64,000 bases of DNA from Haliotis rufescens (Eukaryota), in NCBI RefSeq assembly GCF_023055435.1, contig NW_025963902.1, positions 2,539,815-2,603,814 on the forward strand. The letters are read 5' to 3'. The notes below the pieces were generated by a model. That model did no database searches. It saw nothing but the letters and a program-made list of their open reading frames with translations, and was not told where the DNA came from. Each line of letters begins with the position of its first letter. The first letter of the stretch is position 1. Positions 35,880 through 61,094 of the stretch are shown here, one piece after another. The position numbers and the translations under genes were made by a program.

Positions 35880-36270
35880 ATTTAGACGTCACTATCATTG
35901 AGATTTACAATCTAGCCGTCACTATCGTCGGGATTTACTATCGAGTCGTCACATTCGTTGGGATTTACTATCTAGTCGTCACATTCATTGGGATTTACTA
36001 TCTAGTCGTCACTATTGTTGGGATTTACTATTTAGTCATCACTATCGTTGGGATTTACTATTTAGTCGTCACTATCGTTGAAATTTACTATTTAGTCGTC
36101 ACTATCGTTGGGATTTACTATCTAGTCGTTACTATCGTTGGGATTTACTATCTAGTTGTCACTATCGTTGGGATTTACTATTTAGTAGTCACTATCCTTG
36201 GGATTTACTATTTAGTTGACACTATCGTTGCGATTTACTATTTAGTCGTGACTATCACTGGGATTTAGTT
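35880..36270. repeat. Minisatellite with a 30-bp unit 'gggatttactatctagtcgtcactatcgtt' and about 13 copies.
   Basis: Direct count. ORF 35801-36268 is an artefact. Confidence 0.9.
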
Positions 36271-38987: not shown

Positions 38988-39132
38988 TTATAGTCGGCAA
39001 CTTTGGAGCCAGGTTTCCAGGTTCGAGATCTGTTTCTCCACACTCGACTTGGCGGTTCCACCATAGGCTGTGTACTGGTCCACCGAGTTCTCATAGTTCC
39101 ACACATTGGCCACATCACTTTCGAACAGAGGG
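38988..39132 (-). CDS. ASL: ASL terminal coding exon: (S)[47 protein letters not shown]
   Basis: It matches the argininosuccinate lyase C-terminus (human [38 protein letters not shown]…). The acceptor 'ccggcag|c' is at 39132/39133. The exon starts with 1 nt that completes the AG from the previous exon. The stop is at 38988-38990. Confidence 0.85.
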
Positions 39133-40265
39133 CTGCCGGTACAAACGTAGTGAATGAGTGACATGGGGTTTAAACTGCTTTTACAGTGATAAATAATGTC
39201 AAATCGTAATGTGGGAGGTGGCCTAAAGGTGCAGATGTTTACTATCTCAATAAAACCTAATATTATGGATGTGTTGCTGACAAGGACCATAATTAAGGTG
39301 AATGTTGACTTCAAACCCATGATCAGCAGATCCTGATACAGGCAAGGGATGCAACTCATCTATAGGCCACCATGCACACACAGGTTTTAGGATAGTCACT
39401 AGAGCTGAGTATCGCTTGGTATCTTGCGTAACGATTTGTATCACGATACAGACTGACAATAGTACAGGTATCACGATACACCACATCAAATAGTAAGAAA
39501 TGATGAAATCACTGAAATTCAGCTCTAGAACCTCTTTCTTCATGCATTCATTTATTATCATCTCAAACACTTTAACAATGAACACCGAAAAAAAGAAGGT
39601 TTTCATCGAAGGGATGGTTATTAAATGTAGCAGTCAGTCGAAGTGTCCTCAGTCACCATGTCCTCGTGTGCTGCCATGGTTACAGCATGGTTATGCTACT
39701 ACTGACATTATGGGAGGTCAGTCACTCTGTTAGTTCCTGTTCTATTTATAGCATATCACGTTCAAGAATCGTGTGCATCATAGTAACGATGATATCGTAG
39801 GTATCAGTGAATCGTTACAGCCCTACAGTCTGGAAGGTAATTTAAGGTACCAACGTTTACTACAATATCTGAAAAACTATCGGACCTACTCCAGTCAAAG
39901 TTGGTATGAGATTATTAAACAGTCAAACATAACTGGATATTACATTTAAAGACAATCGGTGCATGAATAAAAAATCTGTCTATTTAGCTATCACTATATT
40001 TCCTCAACAACCAGACCTGTTCGTCATGGGTGGAATGAGCATTCATTGAAACAGCCATCTGCATAATGCTACCCTTCGTCACAGGGCAATATGACACAGT
40101 TGACCCAATCAACTCAACTCGAAAGGGTGCAAGGGAATCACGCACGCACGAATATGATGTAAGCGTTGGGCGTCTCAACGTGCGTGATTCCCGTGCATAT
40201 AGACATGCACATCAACATGCTGGCCGCGACCCTCGGGGACGGCTCACTTCACTTTATTGCTGTAC

Positions 40266-40372
40266 CTGACAGTCTTGAGGTCTTCCAAGAGGAGCTTCTC
40301 CATGACGCAGCCCTTCCTCTCCGCCAGCGCCACACAGCCGCCAGCCAATGAGTGGGCCTCACGGAACGGAAC
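40266..40372 (-). CDS. ASL: ASL exon: VPFREAHSLAGGCVALAERKGCVMEKLLLEDLKTV(S)
   Basis: Human: [36 protein letters not shown]. Acceptor 'ctgtgcag|gttccg', donor 'actgtcag|gtacag'. The exon is 107 nt with phase 0 in and phase 2 out. Confidence 0.85.
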
Positions 40373-40504
40373 CTGCACAGGCAAACACAGGATCTCACCC
40401 CAGTGTCGAAAAACTATTTCATTGTCATTTCCCTGAACAAGCTTTGTGATTGCAATACTTCACTGTTTTTCAAAAGTTATCCAGTATATCTCAATTAAGT
40501 TTTA

Positions 40505-41700
40505 AATCTTGTACCGTCTAGTCCCGTTTATCCGACATGGTTGGCTGCATATGATTATGTTGGATTAACGACTATGAAATTAGGTAGAATCAATGTTTGT
40601 GATGGAAAATCGGACAACTACATGATAGATAATGTTGTAATAAAAAAAAGGAAAAAAGAAATATTCAAATTGTTGTGTTACATTGTCAGCAGAATGTGTT
40701 TTTCTAATCATGTAACCTCTAAAGTTCAACACAAAACAACTGTTACGGGCTGTTTGACTGATTCAAAATACTTTTAAAAGCATAGTCTAGAATGGAAGTC
40801 TCCAGTTTGAAACTAGTGCCCCAATGCTTAACAACCTCATTAAAATCAAATCTTAGTTCTCGCTTCCGCTAAACAAAGATCTGAGGACATCCCATTACGG
40901 GTCACGTCAGACTGACCTTGCGCGAACTTTGACCGGCCAATGGATTGACCAATCAGAAGGGTGCTTTCTCGGGCTTTACAGCACTAATTTCAAATTGGCG
41001 ACTACGCTTCGAAACATATTTTGACAAATTCTCGATTACAAATTTTAAACCTGAACAAAAGAACATTCTGGAATGGCTAACAGATGGTCTAGACTGTATG
41101 GATTCTGTCGTTTAACCCGTAACTATCGTTCAGAATACCCCGTGTTAAAGTTTTCGAGGTTGCATGATTAGAAATCACATTCCGACTGTCACTTTCATAA
41201 TCTGGTAAGCAAAGCTCTGATTGGTCGGATGAAAGGTCGTTCTGACGTGACCCCTAATCGGATGTCTTCAGATCTTTGTTTAGCGGTAGCGAGTACTAAG
41301 GTCTGATTTTAATGAGATTGCAATGCTTAAGAAAGCTGCTTTCTTAGTGGCTAATGTCAAGGTCATTATGATGTGACCTGTAATAGGATATCCTCAGCGG
41401 TAGCGATAACTTGTATCTGATTTTAATGAGATTAAGCATGTGATTAAACCTGTTTTGTTTATTTAAATCATTAATTGTTAATTGTATCAAAACACCGGCT
41501 GTATACTCGCGGGCAGATGACCACGGAGAATGCTGATCAGTGTGTCGGATTAATGAGACTGATTAATGAGTGATTTCAGCAATTCGTTGAAAATTAGGCG
41601 TGTCGGAGTGCGAGACTGTCGGATTAACGGGTCTAAATAGCACTGATTTAATCGGTTCCCATCATTAGTGTCAGACAAAGCCGATTGTCGAATTAACAAG
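40505..41700 (+). repeat. Dispersed ~1.2-kb repeat also present at 61415-61935. The copy here carries a MITE-A insertion at 40847-41440.
   Basis: 40505-40840 aligns with 61415-61680 ('ccgacatggttggctgca.att.atgttggatt.ac…ggacaactacatgatagataa…tttctaatcatg.aacctctaaag.t.aacacaaaac'). 41440-41700 aligns with 61700-61935 ('cctgttttgtttatttaaa.catt…gtgtcggagt…gggtctaaatagcactga…ggttccc.tcattagtgtc…aaagccgattgt.g.attaac.ag'). Confidence 0.6.
40847..41440. mobile_element. MITE-A (copy 1). The ~85-bp TIRs read 'cattaaaatcagatct.agttctcgct.ccgctaaacaaagatctgaggacatcccattacgggtcacgtcagaacgacctttc'. An extra partial third TIR lies at 41340-41440.
   Basis: The left arm at 40847-40930 is the reverse complement of the right arm at 41235-41318. 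A second copy lies at 54472-55041. Confidence 0.75.
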
Positions 41701-41824
41701 ACTTGACTGTAGATGGTTCATGTATATGACATAGAGGGATAATGGAGGCAATATTACAACCCTATTGTAATCGGCACGGAAATCAGTGTCTCACAAGCGC
41801 ACAAAGACATGGCCACTACTCTGC

Positions 41825-42065
41825 TTGAGTGAGTGAGGGAGGGAGCGACTGATATTTTATGCCGCTTTTAGCAATATTCCAGCAGCATCACGGCTGCTGA
41901 CACCTGAGATGGGCATCACACATTGTACCCATGTAGGGAATCAAACCCGAGCCTGTGTGTGACGAGTGAACCCTTTAACCACTGTACCCATGTAGGGAAT
42001 CAAACCCGAGCCTGTGTGTGACGAGTGAACCCTATAACCACTAGGCTACCCAACCATCCCTACCC
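41825..42065 (-). mobile_element. SINE family 1 copy with a tandem duplication of the tRNA-like segment 'cattgtacccatgtagggaatcaaacccgagcctgtgtgtgacgagtgaaccct.taaccact'.
   Basis: Two ~63-bp copies lie at 41928-41990 and 41991-42048. Confidence 0.65.
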
Positions 42066-42220
42066 TGCTAGAACAGTAACTACTGAAAAACAAAATTTGT
42101 ATTCTCCCTCAATGAACCACTGATGAGAAAGCTAGCTGGATCTAACTGATGACATACGTTCTGAACTACCACAGCTCTGGGCGATTTTATGGCTGAAAAT
42201 CTAAAACATGGACACCTTAC

Positions 42221-42301
42221 CCCTTTCCTGACGAGGTAGTAGGCCACATCAGTTGCCAGCATGTCAGAGCTGAGCGCTGCGCTCATGGAATCAGGGTAGA
42301 T
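42221..42301 (-). CDS. ASL: ASL exon: [27 protein letters not shown]
   Basis: Human: [27 protein letters not shown]. Acceptor 'tgtttcag|atc', donor 'aaaggg|gtaagg'. 81 nt. Confidence 0.9.
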
Positions 42302-42987
42302 CTGAAACATATCAATCGTGGATTCTGCACCGTTTTAGTAATATTCCTGCAACATCATGAGGACGCTAGAAATGAACCCACGTGAGAAATCGAACCCAGG
42401 CCTTCAGCAAGATGGGTGAACGCTTTAACCACGCGGCCACCTCACTGCTTCAAAATAACAATAAAGCTGAAGATAAATATACTCACCGCCAAAACAGACG
42501 CGAACCATAGAAACATATAGAGAGATATGTACGTTAAGAAGAGATGTTTCAAATGTGTACCACTTAATGACAAAACTTACAATCAGTCAAGTGTTACCAC
42601 AGAGTGTCTTTATTCTTATCACGATATGCCGCATGTGAATTCCAAATTTCACAAGCTAATCCTGCACGAGACAAATGGTGCATCTGGATTCATGGATCTA
42701 TGACGTTACATGTGATGCGTTCGTCAGCGTCGGTTCACACAACATACCAGGATGTTCGTTTGTGCATTCAACCAATCTTATATCTCTTGAATATGAGTAA
42801 TTCTTCATATTAACCAACGTGTATTAAGCCGTCATGCCGTGATATAACTGGAATACTGTTAAAAGCGGCGTTAAACCCAACTCACTCACTCACTCACAAT
42901 AACACAGGGGCCAGCAAACTTTTGGCAAACTGTGTGTGTGTGATAAACATATGCTCTGTTTATGTTTCAATGCAAACAGTAACAAAC

Positions 42988-43071
42988 CTTGAGGGTAGAG
43001 AGGACACCCGTCGCCACCTGTAGAATGCCAGCCAGGGTGTCATAGGTGTCAAACATGGCCTCCTTGTCTTC
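42988..43071 (-). CDS. ASL: ASL exon: [28 protein letters not shown]
   Basis: Human: [28 protein letters not shown]. Acceptor 'ctttacttag|gaagac', donor 'ctcaag|gtttgt'. 84 nt. Confidence 0.9.
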
Positions 43072-43317
43072 CTAAGTAAAGCAATCGGGCAACTCGTTAG
43101 TCAGTGATCTCATCACCAGGGTGGAGTCAACCACACCCCAACAATCACGAGAATTACTCATCCACATGTACTGTACATAGACAATATCATATTCGTGTTC
43201 ATGTCATACTTTGTTCACGACATCAGTGTCTAAATCCCGTTATTTCCTGAGTGAGAGCGTAAACATAGACATGAACATAAATATGATGTTCTATTTTTTA
43301 ACGAAGAAGACGTCTAC

Positions 43318-43567
43318 ATTGAAAGACAAATGTTAGTGTTTACCTAAAAGGACAGCAAGTCACAACAGCAGCAGAACCACAATTTGTCGAAGGACGTCTT
43401 CAGCTATGATGTTGTGTCTCGCGTTACGTCATTCCAACCTCACTTCAAAATAAGATTTGAATGACGTCCACAATGCCATCCGTATGACGGAAAAATACAC
43501 TGTTGTCTCGTGACGTGATCATACCCTACGAGCACATATGATTTTATGAACCCTGATATGTTTGCCC
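43318..43567. mobile_element. MITE-B, a ~250-bp element with terminal inverted 'ttacctaaaagg…cctcttaggtaa'. It contains 'cttcagctatgatgttgtgtctcgcgttacgtcat' and two TGACGTCA-like motifs.
   Basis: Other copies lie at 61095-61340 and 16310-16480 (partial). Confidence 0.6.
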
Positions 43568-43589
43568 TCTTAGGTAATAAAAATAATTA

Positions 43590-43735
43590 CTCTTGACAAA
43601 GTCAAATTGGGAAAACAAGGACCTGACCCCTGAGGAGGTCTGACCAGACCGAGGCTGAGGTCCGGTCAGACCGCTGAAGGGGTTGGGTCAGAGGGTCCTC
43701 GTTTTCGCATATTGACCTTGTCAAGAGTAATCAAT
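43590..43735. mobile_element. Small palindromic MITE-D, immediately 3' of MITE-B. Its TIRs read 'attactcttgacaaagtcaa…ttgaccttgtcaagagtaat'. The core 'aggacctgacccctgaggaggtctgacc…ggtcagaccgctgaaggggttgggtcagagggtcct' can pair with itself.
   Basis: The reverse complement of 43713-43732 equals 43593-43612 with one mismatch. Confidence 0.55.
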
Positions 43736-44229
43736 CGTTATGTTGTACTGAAATTCACTTGAAAGTTTATGAAGCCTTAAAACCCTGCTCTGTTTCATTA
43801 CTGTAACTTAGCTGCGAACCGTAAAACGTTAGTATGCTAGATGCCATCTTGTTTTCTAGCAGACGAGTCAATATCCATCACATGACAGGTCAATACTGAT
43901 CATGTGACGAGTCAATCTTCGAGGTCAGTGTCAGTCACATGATTTGGGGGTCTACATTGAAATGTATTGTTTCGTTACGTGGTACAGATTAACGAATGGA
44001 ATTTCAAGATTCTTTTTTAATAGAGGTATAACAAGAATCATTGTCTGTAAACATTTAAATTTCTGAGAAGAGTGACTTTTCTCTAACATTGTTATTTCCC
44101 CAGTATCCATAGCTACATAATGGCGGCTACTGATCTTGCTGACTTTCACATCGTAATATTTACTTTGATATGTAGAAAATACCAGCGATTTTGGTCAAAC
44201 ACTTCAGCTCCAGATATATCACGATACAT

Positions 44230-45500
44230 ATGACCTGTAAATCTTAATGTCTTGTAGAGGTCAAGTAAATGTCCTGTATGTAACCTGTAAATGTCCTGTA
44301 TATGATCTGTAAATGTCCTGTATATAACCTGTAAATGTCCTGTATATGACCTGTAAATGTCACATAAATGTTCTTAAATTACCTGTAAATGTCCTGTATA
44401 TAACTGTAAATGTCCTGTATATGACCTGTAAATGTCCTGTATATAACCTGTACATGTCCTGTAGATGACCTGTAAATGTCCTGTATATAACCTGTAAATG
44501 TCCTGTATATAACCTGTAAATGTCCTGTATATAACCTGTAAATGTCCTGTATATGACCTGTAAATGACCTGTAAATGACCTGTAAATGTCCTGTAAATCT
44601 TAATGTCTTGTAGAGGTCACGTAAATGACCTGTAAATGTCCTGTATATAACCTGTACATGTCCTGTATAGGACCTGTAAATGTCCTGTATATAACCTGTA
44701 AATGTCCTGTAAATGACCTGTAAATGTCCTGTATATAACCTGTAAATGTCCTGTATATAACCTGTAAATGTCCTGTATATAACCTGTAAATGTCCTGTAT
44801 ATGACCTGTTAATGTCCTGTAAATCTTAATGTCTTGTAGAGGTCACGTAAATGTCCTTACATGACCTGTACGTGTCCTGTATATGACCTGTAAATGTCCT
44901 GTATATAACCTGTAAATGTCCTGTACATGTTCTGTATATAACCTGTAAATGTCCTGTATATGACCTGTAAATGTCCTGTATATGACCTGTAAATGTCCTG
45001 TATATAACCTGTAAATGTCCTGTATATGACCTGTAAATGTCCTGTAAATGACCTGTATATGACCTGTAAATGTCCTGTATATAACCTGTAAATGTCCTGT
45101 ACGTGTCCTGTATATAACCTGTAAATGTCCTGTATATAACCTGTAAATGTCCTGTAAATGACCTGTATATAACCTGTAAATGTCCTGCATATAACCTGTA
45201 AATGTCCTGTATATAACCTGTAAATGTCCTGTATATGACCTGTAAATGTCCTGTATATAACCTGTAAATGTCCTGTAAATGACCTGTATATAACCTGTAA
45301 ATGTCCTGCATATAACCTGTAAATGTCCTGTATATAACCTGTGAATGTCCTGTAAATGACCTGTATATAACCTGTAAATGTCCTGTAAATGTCCTGTATA
45401 TAACCTGTAAATGTCCTGCATATAACCTGTAAATGTCCTGTATATAACCTGTAAATGTCCTGTAAATGACCTGTAAATGTCCTGCACATGTCCTGTAAAT
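44230..45500. repeat. Minisatellite with a 22-bp unit made of two 11-bp halves, 'cctgtaaatgt' and 'cctgtatataa', and about 58 copies. It lies in the ASL intron and abuts the donor of exon 45516-45575.
   Basis: Direct count. The three minus-strand ORFs at 44826-45626 are artefacts, except their first ~20 codons, which are the real ASL exon. Confidence 0.9.
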
Positions 45501-45515
45501 GTAGATGTAAATTAC

Positions 45516-45575
45516 CTGCAGGTCCTTGTTATAGGTGCTGGGAATCCCCTTCAGGGACATCATGAACCCCGAACA
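45516..45575 (-). CDS. ASL: ASL exon: [20 protein letters not shown]
   Basis: Human: [20 protein letters not shown]. Acceptor 'catgttgcag|tgttcg', donor 'ctgcag|gtaatt'. 60 nt, phase 0 at both ends. Confidence 0.9.
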
Positions 45576-46039
45576 CTGCAACATGACGTACAATACATCT
45601 GTCATGGGACTAAGGGAGTAATACAATCATCCCGAACACTGCAACATCACGTACAATACATCTGTCATGGGACTCATCACACAAGTAAGGGATTTAACCC
45701 CATGCTGCTTTCTAATTACCCTTTATTGATTCTATTAGGACTCGTTGTTCAAGTGCTACACTGGCAGAACAAGGGAGTAATTCAACCATCCCTATTTATC
45801 ACAGTTTAATTTGACTCATTTAAAAAACCAATCACTTCAAAAACGACTTTTCCTAAAGTAACCCATAAATTGAAGTAGTCATGAGAGTGATGAGTGCATG
45901 TTGTTTATGCTACAGTCAGCAATATTCCAGCTATATCATGGTGGCCTGTAATAGTTGAGTCTAGGCCAGGCAGACCAGTGACTGCAAGCAGACTTCTGGG
46001 GACTTACAGTACTCCATAATCACTGCAGGCACAATGACA

Positions 46040-48190
<2,151 letters not shown>

Positions 48191-48204
48191 TCAGTAACTC
48201 AGTC

Positions 48205-48232
48205 ACATCATCATCATCATCATCATCATCAT
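48205..48232. repeat. (ATC)9 trinucleotide microsatellite.
   Basis: 'atcatcatcatcatcatcatcatcatc' is visible directly. Confidence 0.9.
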
Positions 48233-48281
48233 ACTGACAGAGTGATTGTAGCCCACAAGGCCTTATTAACACTTAAAGTAC

Positions 48282-48906
48282 ATCCACACCATAGTGGAGT
48301 GAGTGAGTATGGTTTTACGCATCTTCTTGAGGCAAGAGAGTTAACTGACTATGGAAAGTTTCCACCCTTGCCAAACTAGGCTGGAACTCCTGGGCTCAAT
48401 CGTAGCGCCACCAGTGGCTATTATGAGTTAAGTCCCTTCTAAGCCTCTCTTATGGACCAATCAGATTCCACCTCTCGTATCACTTGTATTTGCTTCAAAC
48501 AAAATGATGGCGCCCAGTCAGGACGATCTGATTGATTGGGAATATTTTGGAAAATTACTGTTGACAATAACTTTGCGGTGCGCATGCTTTACAAATCCTC
48601 CAATTGACCAAAATCTGCATGACAGTTCACGAACCGGATTTCAATTTCGATTTCGTTGGGTGATTTTGATTGGACTATGCATAGACTCGTTAGTCAAGCC
48701 AAAATGTAACTCCATAATACCAGCCTAGTTCGGCAAGGGTGGAAACTGGACTTTTATAGTCAGTCGACCCTCTTGCCGCCGCTTTAAACAATATTCCAGC
48801 AATATCACAGCGGGGAAAATGGGATTCACACAGTGTACACATGTGGGGATTCGAACCTGGGTCTTCGGTGTAACGAGCCAACGCGTTAACCACTAGGCTA
48901 CCCCAC
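48282..48906 (-). mobile_element. SINE family 1 copy flanked by a 14-bp target-site duplication 'cacaccatagtgga'. It is split by a nested MITE-C insertion.
   Basis: The TSD lies at 48276-48289 and 48906-48919. The SINE segments are 48290-48318 and 48786-48905. Confidence 0.65.
48320..48785. mobile_element. MITE-C, a ~465-bp element with ~55-bp TIRs 'ggcaagagagttaactgactatggaaagtttccacccttgccaaactaggctgg'. It is nested inside the SINE.
   Basis: The left arm at 48326-48380 is the reverse complement of the right arm at 48723-48783. Another left-end copy lies at 60140-60265, and the internal part is copied at 18690-18900. Confidence 0.6.
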
Positions 48907-48994
48907 CGCCCCACACCATAGTGGAACTGTTCTCACAGTGGTTCATGGTTGATAACATATGTGTTACCTTCAGGATGCATAGAGATAGATTCTG

Positions 48995-50250
48995 CTGGCA
49001 ATGTAGTCTGTATGCGTCCGAGAGCGTGACAAAGCTCCACTATTGCTACAACTCTGATCAATACTGACATGTATGTCTCCGAGAGCGTGACAAAGCTCCA
49101 CTATTGCTACAACTCTGATCCATACTGACCTGTATGCGTCCGAGAGCTTGACAAAGCTCCACTACTGCTACAACTCTGATCAATACTGACATGTATGTCT
49201 CCGAGAGCGTGACAAAGCTCCACTATTGCTACAACTCTGATCAATACTGACATGTATGTCTCCGAGAGCGTGACAAAGCTCCACTATTGCTACAACTCTG
49301 ATCAATACTGACATGTATGTCTCCGAGAGCGTGACAAAGCTCCACTATTGCTACAACTCTGATCCATACTGACCTGTATGCGTCCGAGAGCTTGACAAAG
49401 CTCCACTACTGCTACAACTCTGATCAATACTGACATGTATGTCTCCGAGAGCGTGACAAAGCTCCACTATTGCTACAACTCTGATCCATACTGACCTGTA
49501 TGCGTCCGAGAGCTTGACAAAGCTCCACTACTGCTACAACACTGATCAATACTGACATGTATGTCTCCGAGAGCGTGACAAAGCTCCACTATTGCTACAA
49601 CTCTGATCCATACTGACCTGTATGCGTCCGAGAGCTTGACAAAGCTCCACTACTGCTACAACTCTGATCAATACTGACATGTATGTCTCCGAGAGCGTGA
49701 CAAAGCTCCACTATTGCTACAACTCTGATCCATACTGACCTGTATGCGTCTGAGAGCGTGACAAAGCTCCACTACTGCTACAACACTGATCCATACTGAC
49801 CTGTATGCGTCCGAGAGCGTGACAAAGCTCCACTATTGCTACAACACTGATCCATACTGACCTGTATGCGTCCGAGAGCGTGACAAAGCTCCACTATTGC
49901 TACAACTCTGATCCATACTGACCTGTATGCGTCCGAGAGCTTGACAAAGCTCCACTATTGCTACAACACTGATCCATACTGACCTGTATGCGTCCGAGAG
50001 CGTGACAAAGCTCCACTATTGCTACAACACTGATCCATACTGACCTGTATGCGTCCGAGAGCGTGACAAAGCTCCACTATTGCTACAACTCTGATCCATA
50101 CTGACCTGTATGCGTCCGAGAGCGTGACAAAGCTCCACTCCGGCTACAACACTGATCCATACTGACCTGTATGCGTCCGAGAGCGTGACAAAGCTCCACT
50201 ATTGCTACAACTCTGATCCATACTGACCTGTATGCGTCCGACAGCGTCAC
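48995..50250. repeat. Satellite with a 61-bp unit 'tgtatgcgtccgagagcgtgacaaagctccactattgctacaactctgatccatactgacc' and about 20 copies. The first part alternates two unit types (a 122-bp dimer); the later part is homogeneous. Each unit is a copy of the last ~27 nt of ASL exon 50228-50342 plus the first ~34 nt of the following intron, including the GT donor.
   Basis: Period 61 was measured from 49011, 49072 and 49133. On the minus strand each unit reads '…agctttgtcacgctctcggacgcatacag|gtcagtatggatcag…'. The exon end reads '…agctttgtgacgctgtcggacgcatacag|gtcagtatgg'. Confidence 0.95.
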
Positions 50251-50342
50251 AAAGCTGAACTCCTTGGTGGAGTAGAGGATGAGGTCCTCCGCCCAGCGGC
50301 TGAGGTGAGTGCTGAGCAGCGACGCCCAGAACAGAAACTCCA
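50228..50342 (-). CDS. ASL: ASL exon: (V)[37 protein letters not shown](S)
   Basis: Human: [39 protein letters not shown] (the fumarate-lyase signature region). Acceptor 'tgtttcag|tggag', donor 'gcatacag|gtcagtatgg'. 115 nt. Confidence 0.9.
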
Positions 50343-50937
50343 CTGAAACATGGCGGAACAGGAGGCAAACTCAGCAACGGATACAGAGACGCCCCAGCTT
50401 GAGGCAATTAGGAATATCTGGGATAATTGGGTCCTAAATTAGCAATAGTTAATAAAATATTCATGATTGTTCAACTACTTAAAGCCACGAACCCGTGAAG
50501 ATCCGGGATAGAATAGGTCTTCAGCAACCCATGCTTGCCGTAAAAGGCGACTAAGGTGATCAGGCAGTCAGGCTCGCTGACTTGGTTGATGCATGTCATG
50601 GATCCCAATTGCGTAGATCGATGCTCATGATATCAATCACTGGATTGTCTGGTCCAGACTTGATTATTTACAGACCACTGTCATACAGCTAAAATATTTG
50701 AGTGCAGCAAACCAACCACACCAACTTTTAAATCATGAAGTTAACGCATTACAAAGTAAAGATGAGCAACAGCCCCTAGCCTAAAATGAGTCCCGAAATT
50801 ATTGCGAGTAGCCCTATCTTTGAAATTTAAAAAACGACAACACTATTTGTTTGTTTGTTGTTTAATGCTGCCCTCAGCAAAATTACAGCTATTTGACGAC
50901 GGTCTGTAAGTAATCAAGTCTGGACCAGACAACTCAC

Positions 50938-51000
50938 CGACAAAGTCTCGGTCACTGACTGCATCCAAACTGTTTCCTGTCACATCCCCAAGGCCAAGTT
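50938..51000 (-). CDS. ASL: ASL exon: (E)LGLGDVTGNSLDAVSDRDFV
   Basis: Human: [22 protein letters not shown]. Acceptor 'tggtttcag|aacttgg', donor 'tttgtcg|gtgagt'. 63 nt. Confidence 0.9.
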
Positions 51001-51181
51001 CTGAAACCAAAGATCGATTCCATTAACACCACATTCTATATATTCATGCTGAGTTTAATAAAATATGTATTTAGTCTTTTTGTTTGGAACATGGCTAAAC
51101 ATTATTTTTTCACTTCTGCTTCCAGTCAACAAGAAATAAAATGTGTAAAGAATTGACTTCAATACTTTTCGCTTTAATGGA

Positions 51182-51320
51182 GTGATCAAGGTTTTACACC
51201 GCTTTAAGCAACATTCCAGCAATATCACGGTGGGGAACACCAGAAAGGGGCTTCACACATTGTACACATGTCGGGAATCAAACCCGGGTCTTTGGTGTGA
51301 CGAGTGAATGCTTTAACATC
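51182..51320 (-). mobile_element. SINE family 1 copy.
   Basis: 'ccgctttaagcaacattccagcaatatcacggtggggaacaccagaaaggggcttcacacattgtacacatgtcgggaatcaaacccgggtctttggtgtgacgagtgaatgctttaacatctaggctaccccaccgccc' is visible directly. Confidence 0.7.
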
Positions 51321-51434
51321 TAGGCTACCCCACCGCCCATCGATTTCATGGATGCCAAAAAATCACTTGAAATTTATACATTCTTGCCTAAACACCTTTG
51401 AAACATGACACAGAAATAAGAACACTCGTTTTAC

Positions 51435-51487
51435 CTTTAGCAAGGAAGTCTCTGTCAACATCAAACGGATTCCCAGCCAGCGCACCA
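51435..51487 (-). CDS. ASL: ASL exon: (S)GALAGNPFDVDRDFLAK
   Basis: Human: SGAIAGNPLGVDRELLRA. Acceptor 'cttgtttag|tggtgcg', donor 'gctaaag|gtaaaa'. 53 nt. Confidence 0.85.
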
Positions 51488-52087
51488 CTAAACAAGAATA
51501 ACAAGAGAGTGAGACTAGCTTAACACCGCTTTGAACAGTATTTCAGTAATATCACGGCATGACAAAACGGAAATAAGATGTTTACCACCTTGTTGAAATG
51601 CAGCTACACAGGAATGGTGTTGACAAACTTAAAAACGCGATCAGTGTGAATCTGTAAATCAACCCCGCGATCACTGATTTCTCTCATACATAAGGGACAC
51701 AACTCTGTACAGCAAGTTGTTGGGCCTTTGACAACTGGGCCACCTGTGACCTTGAAAAGATTGATATCTCAATACCAGGTAATTATGCGTTAAAAAGACA
51801 AAATTTGAGAGAACAATTTCTAAACTACAAATACACATGTACATTTGTAAAGTGCCTATTTCCCACAATGCATACTCGTAGGCAGGCAATTACTACCCCA
51901 GTCAACAGGTCGCTGGACCTTCAATCTACATTCCAAGGGCCACTGAAAATCAGCACCTGGACAATTATGAATATTTTTAAAATTTTAATATTTTAATCAA
52001 CTGTTTTTATGACATGATTTACTGCTTTTTCAAATGCAAGCCATAAGCATGTGATAACACCTAACATGAATTAGTATATAATAAGGG

Positions 52088-52918
52088 TGAAACGATACAG
52101 CAGTTATATCGCGGCGTGTCAGCTTAATATGGGAGGAAAGCCCGAAGTGATGCAGGCCCCAGAAGTTTACCACTTCGGTGAAACCCACGAGCACAGGTAT
52201 GGTGCCGGCAAACCTAGAAACCTTATCGAGTCGAACCGGGATTCGAACCCATGATCATAGGTTTCTGGCATGCCCAAGGGACACAACTCTGCACAGCAAA
52301 TCGCGGTGCCTTACACGACTGGGCCACCCGTGCCCCCGTTTTTAATATTGAACTTGAAAGGCTAATTACAACACATTTTGCAATATCTGACTGACAACAC
52401 CATTCGGATTTAGGTGTGGGTGGGTGTGTGAATGGGTGTGTGTGTGTGGGTGTGGTTGGGGGTGGGTGTGTGGGTGTGGGTGTGTGGGTGGGGATAGAAA
52501 AGTGTGGTTGTGGATTGGGGCTGGGTTGAAGGTGTGGATGAGTGTGGGGGTAGAGGTGTGGTTCTGGATAGGGGTGGAAGTGGGGGTGTGGATCGGGGTG
52601 GGAGTGGATGGAGGTGTGGGTGGATTGGGGCGGGGTTGAGGGTGTGGATGGGCGTGGGGGTAGAGGTGTGGTTCTGGATAGGGGTGGAAGTGGGGGTGTG
52701 GATCGGGGTGGGGGTGGGTGGAGGTGTTGGTGGGGGTGTGGGTTGGGGTAAAGGTGTTGTTGTGGATGGGGGCAGGGGTGGGGGTCATTAAACAAGTAGT
52801 AAGTAACTTATTTTAGCAAGTATATCAACTTGTATTGATACAGAAAGAAAAATGAATTGTGTATCGCATAGTCACATGAAAACTCACGATGCACCGATGT
52901 ATCAGTTCACCCCTGGTA
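52088..52918 (+). mobile_element. Composite TIR-bearing element of ~830 bp. It has a head 'gggtgaaacgatacagcag', a reverse-oriented tRNA-like module at 52200-52330 ('…gggattcgaacccatgatcataggtttctggcatgcccaagggacacaactctgcacagcaaatcgcggtgccttacacgactgggccacccgtgccc'), a spacer, a (GGGTGTG)n-like G-rich microsatellite at 52395-52790, and a tail 'ccgatgtatcagttcacccc' that is the inverse of the head.
   Basis: The head and tail are 17/20-bp inverted repeats. A shorter copy lies at 37372-37738. Partial tRNA-like modules of the same family lie at 51640-51760 and 53290-53470. ORFs 52223-52795, 52366-52788 and 52424-52791 are low-complexity artefacts. Confidence 0.55.
52395..52790. repeat. G-rich low-complexity microsatellite, (GGGTGTG)n-like, about 400 bp. 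It is C-rich on the ASL sense strand.
   Basis: 'gggtgtgggtgtggttggggg…' is visible directly. Confidence 0.85.
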
Positions 52919-53144
52919 TATAAAATCCCATGATGGTCATAAGAAGTGACAAACAGGATCGGTGGTCAGTGTGTCAATCACTGGATTGTCTGGTCGTGAC
53001 TTGATTATTTACAGACCGATATAATAAAGTTGGAATATTGCAGAGTGCAGCATTAAACAACAAACGCACAAATGATACAAACATATCATCTCCTATTTCA
53101 AACTGCATGCTCTCTTCAGGGGAGACAACTCTGCCAGTACTGAC

Positions 53145-53222
53145 CTGCCAAGGGGCAAAACTGCTGTTCTCTCCCTCAGCTGGTCAAGTCTCTTCAGATC
53201 TCGCTGCAACATCCACCCATAG
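53145..53222 (-). CDS. ASL: ASL exon: (S)YGWMLQRDLKRLDQLRERTAVLPLG(S)
   Basis: Human: [27 protein letters not shown]. Acceptor 'cctgttgtgttcag|ctatggg', donor 'cttggcag|gtcagtactgg'. 78 nt. Confidence 0.85.
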
Positions 53223-54258
53223 CTGAACACAACAGGGACGAAGAAGTGGTCATATAAGTTTAGAGGCTGACTTCTAAGAGAGTTGGATGAGATGACACTT
53301 TGAGGAATATTTCACATTATCGAAGGAAAGCCTGATGTGATATAAGTCTTGGACATTCATCACCTTGTGAAAACCACGAGAAAGAATATGGTGCTGACAA
53401 ACCTTGAAACATAAGCAGAGCGAACCAACGACGATAATTTTCTGGCACCCTAAGGGATGCAACTCTGCCCTATGAACTTGGGTGCTTCAGGTAATAAAGG
53501 GCTCTCGTGCCCTACCCTGATGCTAGAAATAAGGGCTGGGACGAGTCCACATTTACTACCCGGGTACCCACCCCGCTATTACCCGACCCTACCTGGTACC
53601 TGCTGTAGGCCTCAAGAGCTTGGAACATAATGTGTCACTGGGAATTATCTTACATAAGCCCTGGCAAAAACTGAACTTGACTGAAGCTTTATCTTTATTC
53701 AAAAACATAAAAGTCAGAAGGAATGTGTGCATAGTCAGAAAAAATGGGGACATCAGAGTTTTGTAGTGTAACCATGGAGTTACAGTGAGTTTTTGTCATT
53801 AAACAATATATCATGTGACTAACATGAGTCCGAGTTGCAGCTGAGTTACCTGTCCAGCACCTAGCTAAAACAGAACATAATCACAACTTCTACTCATAAA
53901 ATTCTATCAAATGAACGACAGTTTGGAAGGGATTTGCCATCTCCATGACAACAATCATGTACCCATTTGGCATACCAGTACATAAACTAAATGACAAAGT
54001 ATCATTTGATACTTTGACCATGTTTATGTTAATCGAACTGCATAAAAAATATTCCAAAGGGCTTACATATCAGAAACAACATATTTTCAATTTATGCACC
54101 TTTATCGCAAATTACTTAATTTTATAATAACTGTGATAAATGATCAATAAAACTGTTCTCTTTCCCACTGCTATATTCTAACTCAAGCTTATTCTATTAA
54201 ATATTATTTCTTTAGAAACTATTTTTCCAGCCACCGACTCAAACTCACAAAGACTCAC

Positions 54259-54336
54259 CTCAGCAACCAGTGGCTCCATCTGATTGGCTGTGCTCTCTGT
54301 AGGTGTGTGTAACCAGGTAGTAAGATGTCAATTTCT
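54259..54336 (-). CDS. ASL: ASL exon: (S)[25 protein letters not shown](S)
   Basis: Human: (E)[25 protein letters not shown]. Acceptor 'atatttttcag|agaaattgac', donor 'gctgag|gtgagtc'. 78 nt. Confidence 0.85.
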
Positions 54337-54471
54337 CTGAAAAATATTTCAATCAAATTATTGGCAAAGTTCAAAGAAAAAAACATTTGAAGAAAAAGGA
54401 AAGCTGGTATCATTTATTGTGTTTGTGTCAATACAGAAAGCTATCACCACTAACTTCACGGTTGATTTGCA

Positions 54472-55041
54472 ATCTCATTAAAATCAGATCTGAGTTCTCG
54501 CTGCTGCTAAACAAAGATCTAAGGACATCCCATTACGGGTCAAGTCAGAACGACCTTTCGCGAACTTTGACCCATCACTTAAATGACCAACAAGAAGTCT
54601 ACATCAGCCAGTTAGAAAGCACCTTTCTCGAGCTTTATGGCACTCGTTTCAACCTGGTGGCTTCCATTTCAGATTACGCTTGAAAAATATGTTCACACAG
54701 TTCTTGATTAAAATTTTGAAAACTGAACAAACGAACATTCCGGAATGTCTAATATATGGTTGAGATTGTATAGCAATGCTTCCCACATACTGTTCAACAC
54801 CTCCTTCTTTCAAATGTTTATCCCACTGAAGCAAGAGATAGACGATAATTTTGACGAATCAGTCGTACGGGTCGTAACTGTCGTTCAGAATACCCCGTGT
54901 TGACGTTTTCAAGGTTGCATGATTAGAAAACACTTTTCCGCTCTGATTGGTCGGATGAAAGGTCGTTCTGACGTGCCCCGTAATGGGATGTCCTCAGATC
55001 TTTGTTCAGCGATAGCGAGAACTAGGATCTGATTTTAATTG
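54472..55041. mobile_element. MITE-A (copy 2, 570 bp). It has the same ~85-bp TIRs as 40847-41318 and lies in an ASL intron.
   Basis: The left TIR 'cattaaaatcagatctgagttctcgctgctgctaaacaaagatctaaggacatcccattacgggtcaagtcagaacgacctttc' faces the right TIR 'gaaaggtcgttctgacgtgccccgtaatgggatgtcctcagatctttgttcagcgatagcgagaactaggatctgattttaat'. Confidence 0.75.
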
Positions 55042-55431
55042 GGACTGGGTTGATTTGCTGTGTAGTCAAATCAAGACACAGCCTGATTCAAGCAAAAAGG
55101 AAGCCAGCGTATGCTCAGATTAAATCACAAGAACAACCATATGTCTCAGTGAACATGTGCCATAGCTTTACAGTCTCATCTCCTTAATACACTGTTTCTG
55201 TACCAGGCAATGGTAGGGTTCTCAAAAGATATGCCCAGAGCATGACTCATTTGATTTCAGTGATCATTTAGTGTACTAAAAATAGACACACATTAAGTGA
55301 CATTATTGTTTGGCTTGTTTGTTCTGGTTGCTGGAAAACACTACACTCAATAAACAATTGGCAAGTAAATAATCATATCTGGAACTGACAATTCAGTGAA
55401 TTGATATTGTGACTGTAGCGGCCATAAAATT

Positions 55432-55620
55432 TCTGAGTCCCGTGATGGGATTCGAACCACGGTCCTGATGATCAGAGGTCGGACACCTTGTCCATGTGAC
55501 CAAAGAGGTTAACCCCGTCAGCAAGCTGACAAGGTAAGGATGTCATCTGTGGGATGACTCCACGCCCTGCTACATGAGCAACTATGTCATCGGGGTCTGA
55601 AGACACACAATAAACCATGT
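55432..55620 (-). mobile_element. tRNA-derived SINE family 4. The reverse complement contains '…ggaccgtggttcgaatcccatcacgggact'. A second copy lies at 57222-57372.
   Basis: The two copies share 'tttc.gagtcccgt.atgggattcgaac.acgg.cct..tgatc…gatgtcatctgtggga…gccct.cta.a..aac'. Confidence 0.55.
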
Positions 55621-55750
55621 CAGCAAGCTTGACCACTCGATCCATGATCACCTCTTACGACCATCATAGGTTGGTGGGGGCCAATCCAACCTGGATTCCC
55701 CAAATGGGCGACTCGCATTGAGCTGACATTCTCTTCATCAGTGTACTCAC

Positions 55751-55905
55751 GACTTAGCCCTGTTGAGGATGACGCTGATGAAGTCGGTGAGGTAAGTGCG
55801 GAGCTGCAGCTGGGCATCTCTCATCCACAGCCTCATGTCCGTGGCCACCTGGTCATTGCGGCTCCGGCCCGTGTGCAGCTTGCCTCCTGCTGCACCGATC
55901 AACTC
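55751..55905 (-). CDS. ASL: ASL exon: [51 protein letters not shown](S)
   Basis: Human: [53 protein letters not shown]. Acceptor 'gaatgtttcag|gagttgatcgg', donor 'gctaagtc|gtgagtac'. 155 nt. Confidence 0.9.
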
Positions 55906-56470
55906 CTGAAACATTCACACCATCGTCACCTGCACTGATGCAGCTCTTAATTTAGTCATCCTGCTGCATGATCAACTCCTGAAACATTCACACCATCGTC
56001 ACCTGCACTGATGCAGCTCTTAATTTAGTCATCCTGCTGCATGATCAACTCCTGAAACATTCACACCATCGTCACCTGCACTGACGCTTCTCTTAATTTA
56101 GTCATCCTGCTGCATGATCAACTCCTGAAACATTCACACCGGCGTCACCTGCACTGATGCAGCTCTTAATTTAGTCATCCTGCTGCACCGATCAACTCCT
56201 GAAACATTCACACCATCATCCCCTGCACTGACGCTTCTCTTAATTTAGTCATCCTGCTGCATGATCAACTCCTGAAACATTCACACCATCGTCACCTGCA
56301 CTGACGCTTCTCTTAATTTAGTCATCCTGCGGAATGATCAACTCCTGAAACATTCACACAAGCATGTCTATCGTCACCTGCACTGACATGTTTCTTAATT
56401 TAGCTATCTTGTTGCACCGATAAACTCCTGAAGCATTGACAAAACAATGTCCATCGTCTCCTGCACTGAC
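55890..56470. repeat. Tandem array with a ~72-bp unit and about 8 copies. On the minus strand each unit reads 'gagttgatcatgcagcaggatgactaaattaagagctgcatcagtgcaggtgacgatggtgtgaatgtttcag'. That is the intron 3' end (pyrimidine tract plus the AG acceptor) followed by the first ~22 nt of ASL exon 55751-55905.
   Basis: The period was measured from 55891 to 55963 and then recurs. The exon start 'gagttgatcggtgcagcagga' matches the unit start 'gagttgatcatgcagcagga' with 3 mismatches. Confidence 0.9.
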
Positions 56471-56577
56471 GTTTTTCTTAACTTAGACCTTATCCTAATC
56501 CTGATCAACATAGTAAAAAAACATGAACATGTTCTGTTCCAAAAGTTTTTTGTCCCTGAATAACTCTAAATAACAAC

Positions 56578-56661
56578 CTTGAGCCTCCTCTCATTGGCAG
56601 TGTGGATGTCTTCGTCCCCTGGCTTCAACTCAAACTCATCTTTCTGCCACTCCTCCTTAAC
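56578..56661 (-). CDS. ASL: ASL exon: [28 protein letters not shown]
   Basis: Human: [28 protein letters not shown]. Acceptor 'gtgtttgcag|gttaagg', donor 'ctcaag|gttgtta'. 84 nt. Confidence 0.9.
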
Positions 56662-57092
56662 CTGCAAACACATCATAAATTCCTGCGTCAGTGATTAACA
56701 ATGTTCTAGCAACATCAGAGGGCCAAGACAAAAGTGAGTTATCTGCCCATGAATGGAGGTCCTATTTCACACTCAAAACTGGTAGTACATTCTACACTGA
56801 TACCAACCAAAGACCGTCTTTCTCGATGATTTGTCTGAATCTCCATAAATGTCAGACTGCAGTTTACTAGCATTCAAAATGACACTTCAAGCCATATCTC
56901 GCTGTAAATTGTGAACCAGACCATATTTTCTAAAGACTTCTAAATTGCATCCTCAAATGTAAGAACATATGAACTTTACAATTATTAGTAATTTTAAACT
57001 GTTTCCCAGTTTGCCCATCATGGGTGCTTAGCTTAAGATCCTAGATAAATCTCTGAGACACACACCAGAGACCCTTCAGGTTGTAAACGTCA

Positions 57093-57179
57093 CCTTCTCC
57101 AAGCCACCAAGTATGGAGTCCCTCTCGGCTGCCGTCACAATGCCCACCTTCTCCAGTGCCTTCACATACGCCTGACTTC
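57093..57179 (-). CDS. ASL: ASL exon: GSQAYVKALEKVGIVTAAERDSILGGLEK
   Basis: Human: [29 protein letters not shown]. Acceptor 'cattgttccag|ggaagtc', donor 'gagaag|gtgacg'. 87 nt. Confidence 0.9.
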
Positions 57180-57221
57180 CCTGGAACAATGTCAGCAGAT
57201 GGAAAGACCCAAATCACAGTT

Positions 57222-57372
57222 TCGAGTCCCGTTATGGGATTCGAACGACGGACCTTCTGATCCAAGGTTGGTCAACATGAACAAAGAAGTTAATACTGTA
57301 GGCCAGCTGACATGGTAGAGATGTCATCTGTGGGACTTATGATCGTATGATCATGCCCTACTAGACAACATG
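57222..57372 (-). mobile_element. SINE family 4 copy, directly adjacent to a SINE family 2 copy at 57372-57560.
   Basis: See 55432-55620. Confidence 0.5.
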
Positions 57373-57560
57373 TTTGTTTGTTGATGGTTAACGCCGCACT
57401 CGGAAATATTCCAGCTATATGATGGCGATCTGTATAAAATCGAATCTGGACCAGACAATCCAGTGATTGAGCATTGATCCATGCAATTGGGACATGATGA
57501 CATGCATCAACCAAGTCAGCGAGCCTGACCACCTGATCCCGTTAGTCGCCTATTACGGCA
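57372..57560 (-). mobile_element. SINE family 2 copy in minus orientation.
   Basis: 'ttaacgccgcactcggaaatattccagctatatgatggcgatctgtataaaatcgaatctggaccagacaatccagtgattgagcattgatccatgcaattgggacatgatgacatgcatcaaccaagtcagcgagcctgaccacctgatcccgttagtcgcc' is visible directly. Confidence 0.7.
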
Positions 57561-58467
57561 AGCATGACACAACAGAGTAACATATCAAACTATACTCACC
57601 ACCACAAGAAACGCAAAAAAACATATACAGTAAACTACGGTTATAACAAACTCAAAGGGACCACTAATTTTAGTTCGTTATAACTGCAGGTTATAAGCAT
57701 ATACAGCATATCTACAGCAAATGGACGGGACCAAGAAACAGTTTGTTATATCCATCAGTTGGTTATAAGCGTGTTCGATATAAATGTAGTTTACTGTATC
57801 CTGGTTAATATATGAATTACTCATATTCAAGAGACATAAGATTGGTTTCAAGTACAAACGAACATACTGCTTTGTTGTGTGAACTGACGCTCATGAACGC
57901 ATCACATGTGACGTCATAGGCCCATGACTCCAGATGCTCCATTTGTCTCGTGCAGGATTAGCGTGTAAAGTTCGGAAATCACGTGCAACATATTATGAAA
58001 AGTATAAAGACACTCTGCGGTAACACTTGACTGCTTGTTAGTTTTGTCATAAATAGGTACACATTGGAAACATCTCTTCTTAACAAACATACTTCTCTAT
58101 ATGTTTTTATGTTTCGTGAGTATAGTTCTGATTGAAACATACTGTGACAAGTGTATTCAATATTTGTTGAACCAAGGAACCACTCTCGCATGTCTAGGTG
58201 CATGTGTAGTTTAACATGAAGATTTTTCCACTTACAGCAAATTTGAAGTGGTTGTTTCTTATAATTGGTTTTCCTTGGACACAAAATGTAAATAAAACTA
58301 TTTTATAAAAGCAACATTTTAAACAAACAGTTTCAGAAAAAGAATAATACCCTGGCAAAACCAAAATGACACTGACAATCGTGGAAATTTAGTTTCATAT
58401 AAATAAACATATTCAAGCTGCAGGCCTTGTTAATAAGTTTTAATCAGGAAATAACAGATTGAAGTAC

Positions 58468-58575
58468 CTCAATGTCAGCCTTCCACATCCTCTTGTCATA
58501 GGAGATGGAGGCGTTGAACTTCTCCATGATCGGGTCTGTTGCCCCGGTGAACCGGCCACCCCACAGCTTACTTCC
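58468..58575 (-). CDS. ASL: ASL exon (second coding exon): [36 protein letters not shown]
   Basis: Human: (S)[35 protein letters not shown]. Acceptor 'gatccactag|ggaagtaag'; the in-frame codon just upstream is TAG, so the initiator Met must lie in an upstream exon. Donor 'attgag|gtacttc'. 108 nt. Confidence 0.85.
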
Positions 58576-58654: not shown

Positions 58655-58935
58655 GATCAATACCCTAGAGACCTGTGAAGATCAGGGTAGAATAGGTCTT
58701 CAGCAACCCATGCTTGCCGTAAAAGGTGACTATGCTTGTCGTAAGAGGCAACTTAAGGGATCGAGTGGTCAGGATCGCTGACTTGGTTGATGCATGTCAT
58801 CGTATCCCGATTACGTGGAACGATGCTCATGGTGTCAATCACTGGATTGTCTGGTCCAGATTCGATTATTTACAGACTGCGGTCATATAGCTGGAATATT
58901 GCTGAGTGCGGTGTTAAACAACAACCCAACCAACC
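58655..58935 (+). mobile_element. SINE family 2 copy.
   Basis: 'gaagatcagggtagaataggtcttcagcaacccatgcttgccgtaaaaggtgactatgcttgtcgtaagaggcaac…caatcactggattgtctggtccagattcgattatttacagactgcggtcatatagctggaatattgctgagtgcggtgttaaacaacaacccaaccaacc' is visible directly. Confidence 0.7.
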
Positions 58936-59230
58936 AATAGCCTTGACCCATACACCAACATAGCTTCATTTTGGAACTGACGTAAACAGCTCCATCGCCA
59001 CTGCCGTGTGAGGTCTGTCGTTGTCTTGTTGGAAAATGACTTTCGCTTGTTGCTTAATGGGAAGGACGTGTGGCTGAAGAATCTCATCCAATTACCCAGA
59101 AACTGTACTAGGTCTGTTCTACCAGTGTAGGAGATGGCAGCCCACATCATCACAGTGTCGCCACTTAATCTGTCCACTTCCTGAATGCAGTTTGTGCATA
59201 ATGTTCCCTGCGGTGCCAATAAACACGTCT
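58930..59230 (-). pseudogene. Fragment of a Tc1/mariner transposase C-terminal catalytic region (…GDTVMMWAAISYTGRTDLVQFLGNWMRFF…). It is truncated by the SINE family 2 insertion.
   Basis: It resembles the Tc1 motif GGGSVMVWG.FS..G.G.L..I.G.M. The ORF 58914-59219 runs into the SINE tail. Confidence 0.4.
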
Positions 59231-59700: not shown

Positions 59701-60689
59701 ACCCTTTTCCAGTACACAACAACTTCAAGTCAATAGTAACAGCTTTTATGTCAAATTCAGCAGTTTCAATTTACCTATGTGCTCATTTTGCAAGCAGTTA
59801 TACTGATGATATTCAAAAACACAAAAAGAATTCTTTTATTTTACATACCGGTAGATCCTTCCACATGACAGTAAACATTTAGCCGTGCTTGCCATGGAAA
59901 TGCCACCAGCTGTTACATGGCGTTTTTCATGAAGTCAACATTCATTCTCTGAACACTTCATCATGTTTATTTATTCTATAAAAATAATAATAATAGTAAT
60001 ATACCAAGTACATGTGAATTTAAACTAATCACCATCAATAAGACTACAATTAATACTATATTAATACATTTTACATATGCAACCAAATGAGTCAATGTGA
60101 TTATATTGTTATCTCCACCACAGCAGCCTGCTGGGTAAGTGTCCATCTTCCTGAGGCAAGGGAGTTAACTGACTGTAAAAGTCCAGTTTCCACCCTTGCC
60201 GAACTAGGCTGGAATTTCTGGGCTTGATCGTAGCGCCACAAGTGGCTATTAAGAGTTATATCCCATCTATACCCATCTATAATTCACAGACTGCTTATGC
60301 CACCATGTCAACCTTGTGACAGGTGTCTTCATCCATTTAATTGAGTCTGGACCAGACAATCCACTGATTGACATCAGCATTGATCTAAGCAATTGGGATG
60401 GGATGACATGCATCAACAAAGTCAGCGAGTCTGCTAAAGCATGGGTTGCCAAAGAACAATTCTAACCCTGATCTGTACGGGTTCAACCATATTAACCACA
60501 CAATACACTATCAGTCTACTCATTGGATCACATAATACACACCTCCCCCGCTTCTTCATGCTTCGAGTCCGCCATCTTGGATGTACCTCAGTATCTGGAA
60601 AATACAACACATGGTAAACCAAAGATAAGGTATTCATTTAAGGACTGAAACAATGACCCGCGAGAATTAGTGCATCGTGGTATGAGTAA

Positions 60690-60975
60690 TATATTTTATT
60701 GTCATGATTGGTTGGTTGGTTGCTTTGTTGTTTAACGCCGCACTCAGCAATATTCCAGCTATATGACGGCGGTCTGTAAATAATCGAGTCTGGATCAGAC
60801 AATCCAGTGATTAATATCATGAGCATCGACCCACGCAATTGGGATCGATGACATGTATCAACCAAGTCAGCGAGCCTGACCACCCGATCCCGTTAGTCGC
60901 CTTTTACAAGCATAGTCGCCTTTTGCGGCAAGAATGGGTTGCTGAAGACCTATTCTACCCCGGAATCTTCACGGG
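60690..60975 (-). mobile_element. SINE family 2 copy in minus orientation. A 5'-truncated copy lies at 60330-60450.
   Basis: The consensus core is visible directly. Confidence 0.7.
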
Positions 60976-61094
60976 TCCTATTGTCATGAAACAAAATGCT
61001 AAATCATAAACATAATACTAATAGAACAAGCTATAATATACCAGTCTTATGAGCTAAACACAAATAACATAATTCTCTATTTATTACCCAAGAA

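Follow-up and report, generated by a model that had tools for sequence, protein, structure and literature searches.

An intact argininosuccinate lyase gene of the red abalone Haliotis rufescens, with minisatellites spanning four of its splice junctions

The stretch of DNA analysed here (the window) comprises 64,000 nucleotides (nt) of contig NW_025963902.1 of the red abalone, Haliotis rufescens, and carries on its minus strand a gene for argininosuccinate lyase (ASL). By what is established for ASL and delta-crystallin, the enzyme would be a homotetramer that splits argininosuccinate into arginine and fumarate, with three conserved regions contributed by different subunits building each active site jointly. 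The gene is already known, in that NCBI annotates an identical protein, and it encodes a conserved housekeeping enzyme of arginine synthesis. We think, with a probability of about 97%, that the locus is the single, intact and functional ASL gene of this abalone, encoding a 471-residue enzyme of the fumarate-lyase superfamily. Besides the gene itself, we describe four minisatellite arrays in its introns, each of which extends across a splice junction.

A complete gene model in sixteen coding exons

The exons were located by running a human ASL sequence against the window with tblastn, and their borders were then set by reading the flanks of the blocks. The search gave 15 collinear blocks on the minus strand, covering residues 7-461. 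The corresponding exons (exons 2-16, Table 1) all have an AG acceptor, all except the last have a GT donor, and their phases are mutually consistent. A sequence-only reading made by eye had proposed these same 15 exons between 38988 and 58575, with canonical borders, consistent phases and a total length of 1383 nt, an exact multiple of 3. The model is borne out to the base, the 1383 nt being 460 codons plus the stop; the stop itself had been read as TGA and has to be corrected to TAA (TTA on the plus strand). All the protein motifs quoted in that reading are present, and the in-frame TAG and acceptor that it placed before exon 2 are seen as cactag^GGAAGT, in which TAG plays both parts at once (a caret marks the splice junction here and below).

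The same reading held that the initiator exon was not found in the window and predicted a short ATG exon upstream of 58575. The exon does exist upstream, separated from exon 2 by an intron of 1967 nt, and it lies inside the window. The NCBI protein 'argininosuccinate lyase-like [Haliotis rufescens]' (P0001, 471 aa) starts with MADSKHEEAGE followed by GSKLWGGRF, and a peptide search of the six-frame translation locates a single coding copy of MADSKHEEAGE in the window, on the minus strand. The donor gtgtgtatt comes directly after the GAG codon, the ATG stands in the context ccaagATGg, and a TGA occurs in frame 15 nt upstream of it. With exon 1 included, the coding sequence has 16 exons and 1416 nt, spans 21.6 kb (60575-38988, minus strand) and translates residue for residue into P0001; there is no difference between the two models, which describe the same gene. 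Confirming the by-eye model and completing it with exon 1 is, in our opinion, a useful outcome in itself.

The real ends of the transcript are what we infer from short motifs. An acceptor-like motif of the polypyrimidine-CAG type, tgtgttgtattttccag, stops 19 nt short of the ATG on its upstream side and is nearly invariant across a four-species Haliotis alignment, while the sequence further upstream diverges; for this reason, the ATG exon would begin at 60594 and a non-coding 5' exon would lie further upstream. AATAAA signals occur at 38174 and 37625, which is 813 and 1362 nt downstream of the stop.

The family membership of the protein is clear from several models. Pfam assigns Lyase_1 (PF00206) to residues 18-312 (E=8e-102) and ASL_C2 (PF14698) to residues 375-442 (E=2e-25), and the TIGR00838 argH equivalog model gives 600.3 bits against a curated cutoff of 279.5, whereas the purB, pcaB, aspA and fumC models each stay under their own cutoffs. 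A phmmer search of the PDB finds human ASL (1AOS) at E=2e-201 without gaps (residues 9-468 against 2-461), far more than chance would give, and this also supports the original reading of the locus as a near-complete ASL gene. BLASTP against the human sequence gives 65% identity, again without gaps. The likeness to human ASL (PDB 1AOS, 1K62) thus extends over a gap-free alignment of 460 residues, the three active-site regions and the GSxxMxxKxN signature; the abalone protein differs by an N-terminus that is 7 residues longer, and its gene by introns with junction-spanning minisatellites. Conserved regions 1 and 2 match human ASL column for column, and so does the fumarate-lyase signature, G-S-x(2)-M-x(2)-K-x-N. 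With an offset of +7, His167, Ser288, Lys294 and Arg120/Asn121 correspond to human H160, S281, K287 and R113/N114; we take these to be catalytic residues, given the roles that the established literature assigns to their human counterparts. The human gene presumably also has 16 coding exons, with a very short first one ending just before the ...GKLWGGRF codons. The orthologue of the limpet Patella caerulea (L005 1001-11411) gives just three tblastn blocks (residues 1-101, 90-343 and 319-468), and it seems from this pattern to have lost most of the 15 introns that are present in abalone and scallop.

The identities in a protein search were 100% for H. rufescens, 99% for H. cracherodii, 97% for H. 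rubra and 96% for H. asinina. The orthologous loci of the last three species were compared with that of H. rufescens (L001 for H. cracherodii, L003 for H. rubra, L002 for H. asinina). When the loci of H. cracherodii and H. asinina are divided into exons of the same lengths, the annotated proteins of both are reproduced. The ratio of nonsynonymous to synonymous changes (pN/pS) comes to 0.035 in the comparison with H. cracherodii and 0.041 in that with H. asinina; the gene is intact and, with a pN/pS of about 0.04, under strong purifying selection. Exon 3 of H. rubra (L003 6624-6711) measures 88 nt in the assembly instead of 87 nt, and the ungapped comparison with this species gives a pN/pS of 0.116; the extra nucleotide probably explains both the raised value and the 'LOW QUALITY PROTEIN' flag of NCBI.

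Table 1. Features of the window. Exons 2-16 follow from tblastn blocks and the reading of splice-site flanks; exon 1 from peptide search, sequence reading and translation of the full coding sequence.
Feature	Position	Strand	Description
Acceptor-like motif	60595-60611	minus	tgtgttgtattttccag, polypyrimidine-CAG
Exon 1, coding part (initiator)	60543-60575	minus	ATG GCG GAC TCG AAG CAT GAA GAA GCG GGG GAG
Exon 2	58468-58575	minus	108 nt, phase 0, GSKLWGGRF...WKADIE
Exon 3	57094-57180	minus	87 nt
Exon 4	56578-56661	minus	84 nt
Exon 5	55751-55905	minus	155 nt; conserved region 1
Exon 6	54259-54336	minus	78 nt; conserved region 2
Exon 7	53145-53222	minus	78 nt
Exon 8	51435-51487	minus	53 nt
Exon 9	50938-51000	minus	63 nt
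Exon 10	50228-50342	minus	115 nt
Exon 11	48086-48170	minus	85 nt; fumarate-lyase signature (conserved region 3)
Exon 12	45516-45575	minus	60 nt
Exon 13	42988-43071	minus	84 nt
Exon 14	42221-42301	minus	81 nt
Exon 15	40266-40372	minus	107 nt
Exon 16, coding part	38988-39132	minus	145 nt; stop TAA at 38990-38988
Exon 5 acceptor array	55885-56486	minus	73-nt unit, about 6.5 clean copies plus degenerate ones; fills most of intron 4
Exon 10 donor array	49008-50256	minus	61-nt unit x 20.5
Exon 11 donor array	46037-48088	minus	32-nt unit x 64; starts on donor AAT^GTATGTGG
Exon 12 donor array	44265-45518	minus	11/22-nt unit, about 57 copies of 22 nt; starts on donor CAG^GTAATT
G/T-rich tract, intron 7	52413-52785		Low complexity (GGTGTG/GGGGTG)
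KCTD-like open reading frame	28490-29167	minus	BTB_2 + KCTD_C
52-nt minisatellite	27973-28518		10 copies
Satellite	5-7934		162-163 bp unit, about 49 copies, 90-94% matches
Transposon remnants	21853-22607, 31641-33667, 9815-10231	plus	
Further large minisatellites	19302-20922, 22875-25131, 26150-26584, 35877-36267		17/34/68-nt, 29-nt, 32/48/80-nt, 16-nt and 30-nt units
SINE-like element, copies	34985-35214, 50491-50708, 57371-57565, 58670-58937, 60640-61000, 63224-63449		About 270 bp

Minisatellites across splice junctions and their origin

Tandem Repeats Finder detects seven tandem arrays inside the ASL gene, and four of them begin or end exactly on an exon border, overlapping exons 5, 10, 11 and 12 by 21, 29, 3 and 3 nt, respectively. 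In all four, the terminal unit spans the exon-intron boundary and derives from it, and the copies keep its AG or GT signals, which gives roughly 130 duplicated splice sites in all. The arrays are a real and reproducible side observation, as they are present in the independent assemblies of two species, H. rufescens and H. cracherodii.

The acceptor array of exon 5 was revealed when the automatic anchor for this exon fell on a pseudo-acceptor copy at 56198; this start breaks the frame and was rejected in favour of 55905. The terminal unit covers the real acceptor, upstream of which lie seven pseudo-acceptors (55978, 56051, 56124, 56198, 56271, 56344 and 56427). Six of them read gaatgtttcag^GAGTTGATC and the distal one, at 56427, reads caatgcttcag^GAGTTTATC, six of the seven being identical from -11 to +9. 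The first unit of the exon 10 array consists of the final 29 nt of the exon, the donor and 32 nt of intron, and it is followed by 19 further copies of the junction, 12 as ACAG^GTCAGTATGG with an identical donor 9-mer and 7 as ACAT^GTCAGTATTG; in the final copy, the repeat breaks off precisely at ACAG. Counts of 9-mers give 54 pseudo-donors in the exon 11 array (33 AAT^GTATGT and 21 AGT^GTATGT) and, together with the sequence itself, about 48 weaker sites of the form CAG^GT(T/C)AT(A/T) in the exon 12 array.

All four arrays occur at the same junctions in H. cracherodii, with different copy numbers: 6.5 in H. rufescens versus 14.5 in H. cracherodii for exon 5, 20.5 versus 23.1 for exon 10, 64 versus 31.1 for exon 11, and about 57 versus about 12 units of 22 nt for exon 12. 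None of them is found at the ASL loci of H. asinina or H. rubra, whose single-copy junction sequences match the repeat units and are recognisable as the founder of each. Since these founder junctions are single-copy, the arrays arose from the junctions themselves on the branch that gave rise to H. rufescens and H. cracherodii, after the split from H. rubra and H. asinina. The copies in the exon 10 array keep the ancestral codons GTC and CTC, while exon 10 of H. rufescens itself now has the synonymous GTG and CTG.

Arrays of this type are known from amphioxus as 'mirage' minisatellites, described in Adh3, globin, TnC and PGBD5 genes, in which the terminal unit likewise spans the intron-exon boundary and the splice signals are copied (PMC3087553, PMC3902484). 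Both 5' and 3' exon borders are affected there, the repeat number is unstable, normal splicing is reported to be undisturbed, and the repeats have been proposed as a route of intron gain (PMC3087553, PMC3902484). The abalone case differs in having four arrays in one gene and 20 to 64 copies, compared with the 2-6 quoted for amphioxus globins. In the papers found, mirages are described just in cephalochordates, whereas the abalone is a gastropod mollusc; the literature searched, which covers the field in part and is no proof of absence, reports no mirage-type repeats for molluscs or Haliotis. A paper on an abalone TSSK1-like gene describes an ordinary intronic 27-bp minisatellite and nothing more of that kind.

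Do these arrays mark a process tied to splice junctions, or have ordinary intronic minisatellites of a repeat-rich genome met four junctions by chance? The window is full of minisatellites unrelated to exons, which speaks for coincidence. The presence of a junction in at least four of the seven arrays has P=0.0026 and P=0.0006 under two simple null models, figures that come from a post hoc test on a single gene. Chance would also have to accommodate the derivation of the units from the ancestral single-copy junctions and the events at junctions of H. rubra, where independent young two-copy duplications span the donor of exon 2 (46 nt x 2, the copies being 100% identical; L003 4066-4155) and the acceptor of exon 5 (about 40 nt x 2; L003 about 9395-9445). 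A further young duplication of 33 nt x 2 in this species abuts the exon 9 acceptor (L003 13970-14036). Moreover, three or four arrays also span junctions in the ASL orthologue of amphioxus (Branchiostoma; L004 3800-4004, 4790-5152, 7155-7476 and 2430-2478), and one of them is located at the acceptor of its counterpart of abalone exon 12. A 100-nt unit in the amphioxus arrays includes a (GGGTTA)n telomere-like tract.

The scallop Pecten maximus falls on the side of coincidence. A junction-spanning array had been suspected in its ASL orthologue from the ends of tblastn blocks; the sequence itself puts the start of the sole array close to an exon 28 nt into the intron, and none spans a junction. 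Weighing all this, we regard a purely accidental meeting as possible but rather unlikely. The papers found treat mirages as peculiar to cephalochordates, apart from an isolated case in human F7. Given the four large arrays of this one gene and the two to three independent young duplications of H. rubra, splice junctions of abalone genes may instead be places where such minisatellites form repeatedly and by preference; for the moment this is a tentative idea, to which we would give clearly less than an even chance.

Splice-site choice and the integrity of the gene

The abundance of duplicated splice sites raises the issue of how the real ones would be chosen. A precedent is human F7, in which a variable number tandem repeat (VNTR) of 37 bp spans the exon 7 donor and experiments showed that the most upstream donor is selected, identical pseudo-sites being silent (PMC1557585). 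By analogy with this intron 7 VNTR, the most upstream donor of each of the three abalone donor arrays would be committed first. The human case involves several repeats at one junction, while the abalone gene has three donor arrays with 19 to about 54 pseudo-donors, and also an acceptor array, to which an explanation by 5'-to-3' scanning does not apply. In the exon 5 acceptor array, the choice would fall on the last copy, since no other lies next to the true body of the exon with its strong GTGAGT donor.

Use of any pseudo-acceptor copy at exon 5 leads to a stop at codon 112-113, use of any pseudo-donor copy at exon 10 to a stop at codon 331-349, and use of pseudo-donors at exon 11 to a stop at codon 329 (first 11 register copies run). 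RNAs mis-spliced at these three exons would thus carry premature stops and would be degraded by nonsense-mediated decay. Together with the conservation of the protein, these premature stops argue indirectly that splicing is normal despite the arrays, and how the spliceosome would ignore so many copies is what we infer from the F7 analogy and the exon context described above.

Three points weigh against our reading of a fully functional gene. All three frames stay open through the exon 12 array, where splicing at 10 of the 51 CAGGT sites would produce in-frame, stop-free inserts that escape nonsense-mediated decay; the silence of the pseudo-sites is an assumption; and the support for the junctions, the 5' untranslated exon and the poly(A) site consists of protein homology and the match to an NCBI model that is itself partly a prediction.

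If the duplicated splice sites of the four introns did disturb splicing, as they could in principle, the locus might be an unexpressed or decaying ASL paralogue, with the functional copy elsewhere in the genome. We consider such a pseudogene very improbable and reject it on the evidence of selection and the family scores. The reading frame is intact over 16 exons and all splice sites are canonical, the catalytic motifs are all in place, pN/pS is low against two other Haliotis species, and the search yielded one close ASL match for each of four Haliotis species, with collinear exons at all four loci. Still less credible, and likewise rejected on family scores and selection, is an ASL-derived gene recruited to a non-enzymatic role like bird delta-1 crystallin instead of serving the urea cycle and arginine synthesis: NCBI names the product just 'argininosuccinate lyase-like' and delta crystallins rank next in the PDB (E about 1e-190), but human ASL outscores every crystallin, the argH equivalog threshold is passed, and the matches include no more than one such protein per Haliotis species, presumably its sole source of the enzyme. 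A functional ASL gene, with a product that would be enzymatically active, is thus the reading that we retain.

Other features of the window and implications

The remainder of the window is rich in repeats (Table 1). The large satellite continues past the left edge of the window and long plus-strand open reading frames read through it. The KCTD-like open reading frame shares the strand of ASL and follows it at a distance of about 10 kb; an upstream exon is probably missing from it. Its final 9 codons and its stop are overlapped by the 52-nt minisatellite, which was considered as another splice-junction case and rejected, no GT donor being seen there. The SINE-like interspersed element (a resemblance to short interspersed nuclear elements) has 14 copies in the window, mostly within ASL introns, those listed in Table 1 being among them; the one just upstream of the ATG exon is common to H. 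cracherodii and absent in H. asinina and H. rubra. The transposon remnants comprise Tc1/mariner-like helix-turn-helix and transposase fragments, reverse-transcriptase fragments of retrotransposons without long terminal repeats and an unclassified open reading frame. Further large minisatellites lie between ASL and the satellite, and the 30-nt array is also found downstream of ASL in H. cracherodii (L001 26655-26860). The G/T-rich tract of intron 7, whose minus-strand reading is a proline/histidine-rich open reading frame of 190 aa, has a conserved position in H. cracherodii (L001 13037-13242).

Placing mirages of the amphioxus type in a mollusc extends a known but little-studied phenomenon, and we see the value of this as modest. 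The abalone ASL gene is an extreme natural example of presumably silent decoy splice sites, which bears on the choice of 5' and 3' splice sites and on intron gain by duplication of junctions. If such arrays do arise preferentially at splice junctions, a junction-tied mutational process would seed tandem duplication in distant animal phyla, and abalone ASL would lend itself as a natural test case to the study of splice-site choice, having 19 to 54 identical and presumably silent pseudo-donors as well as 7 near-identical pseudo-acceptors.

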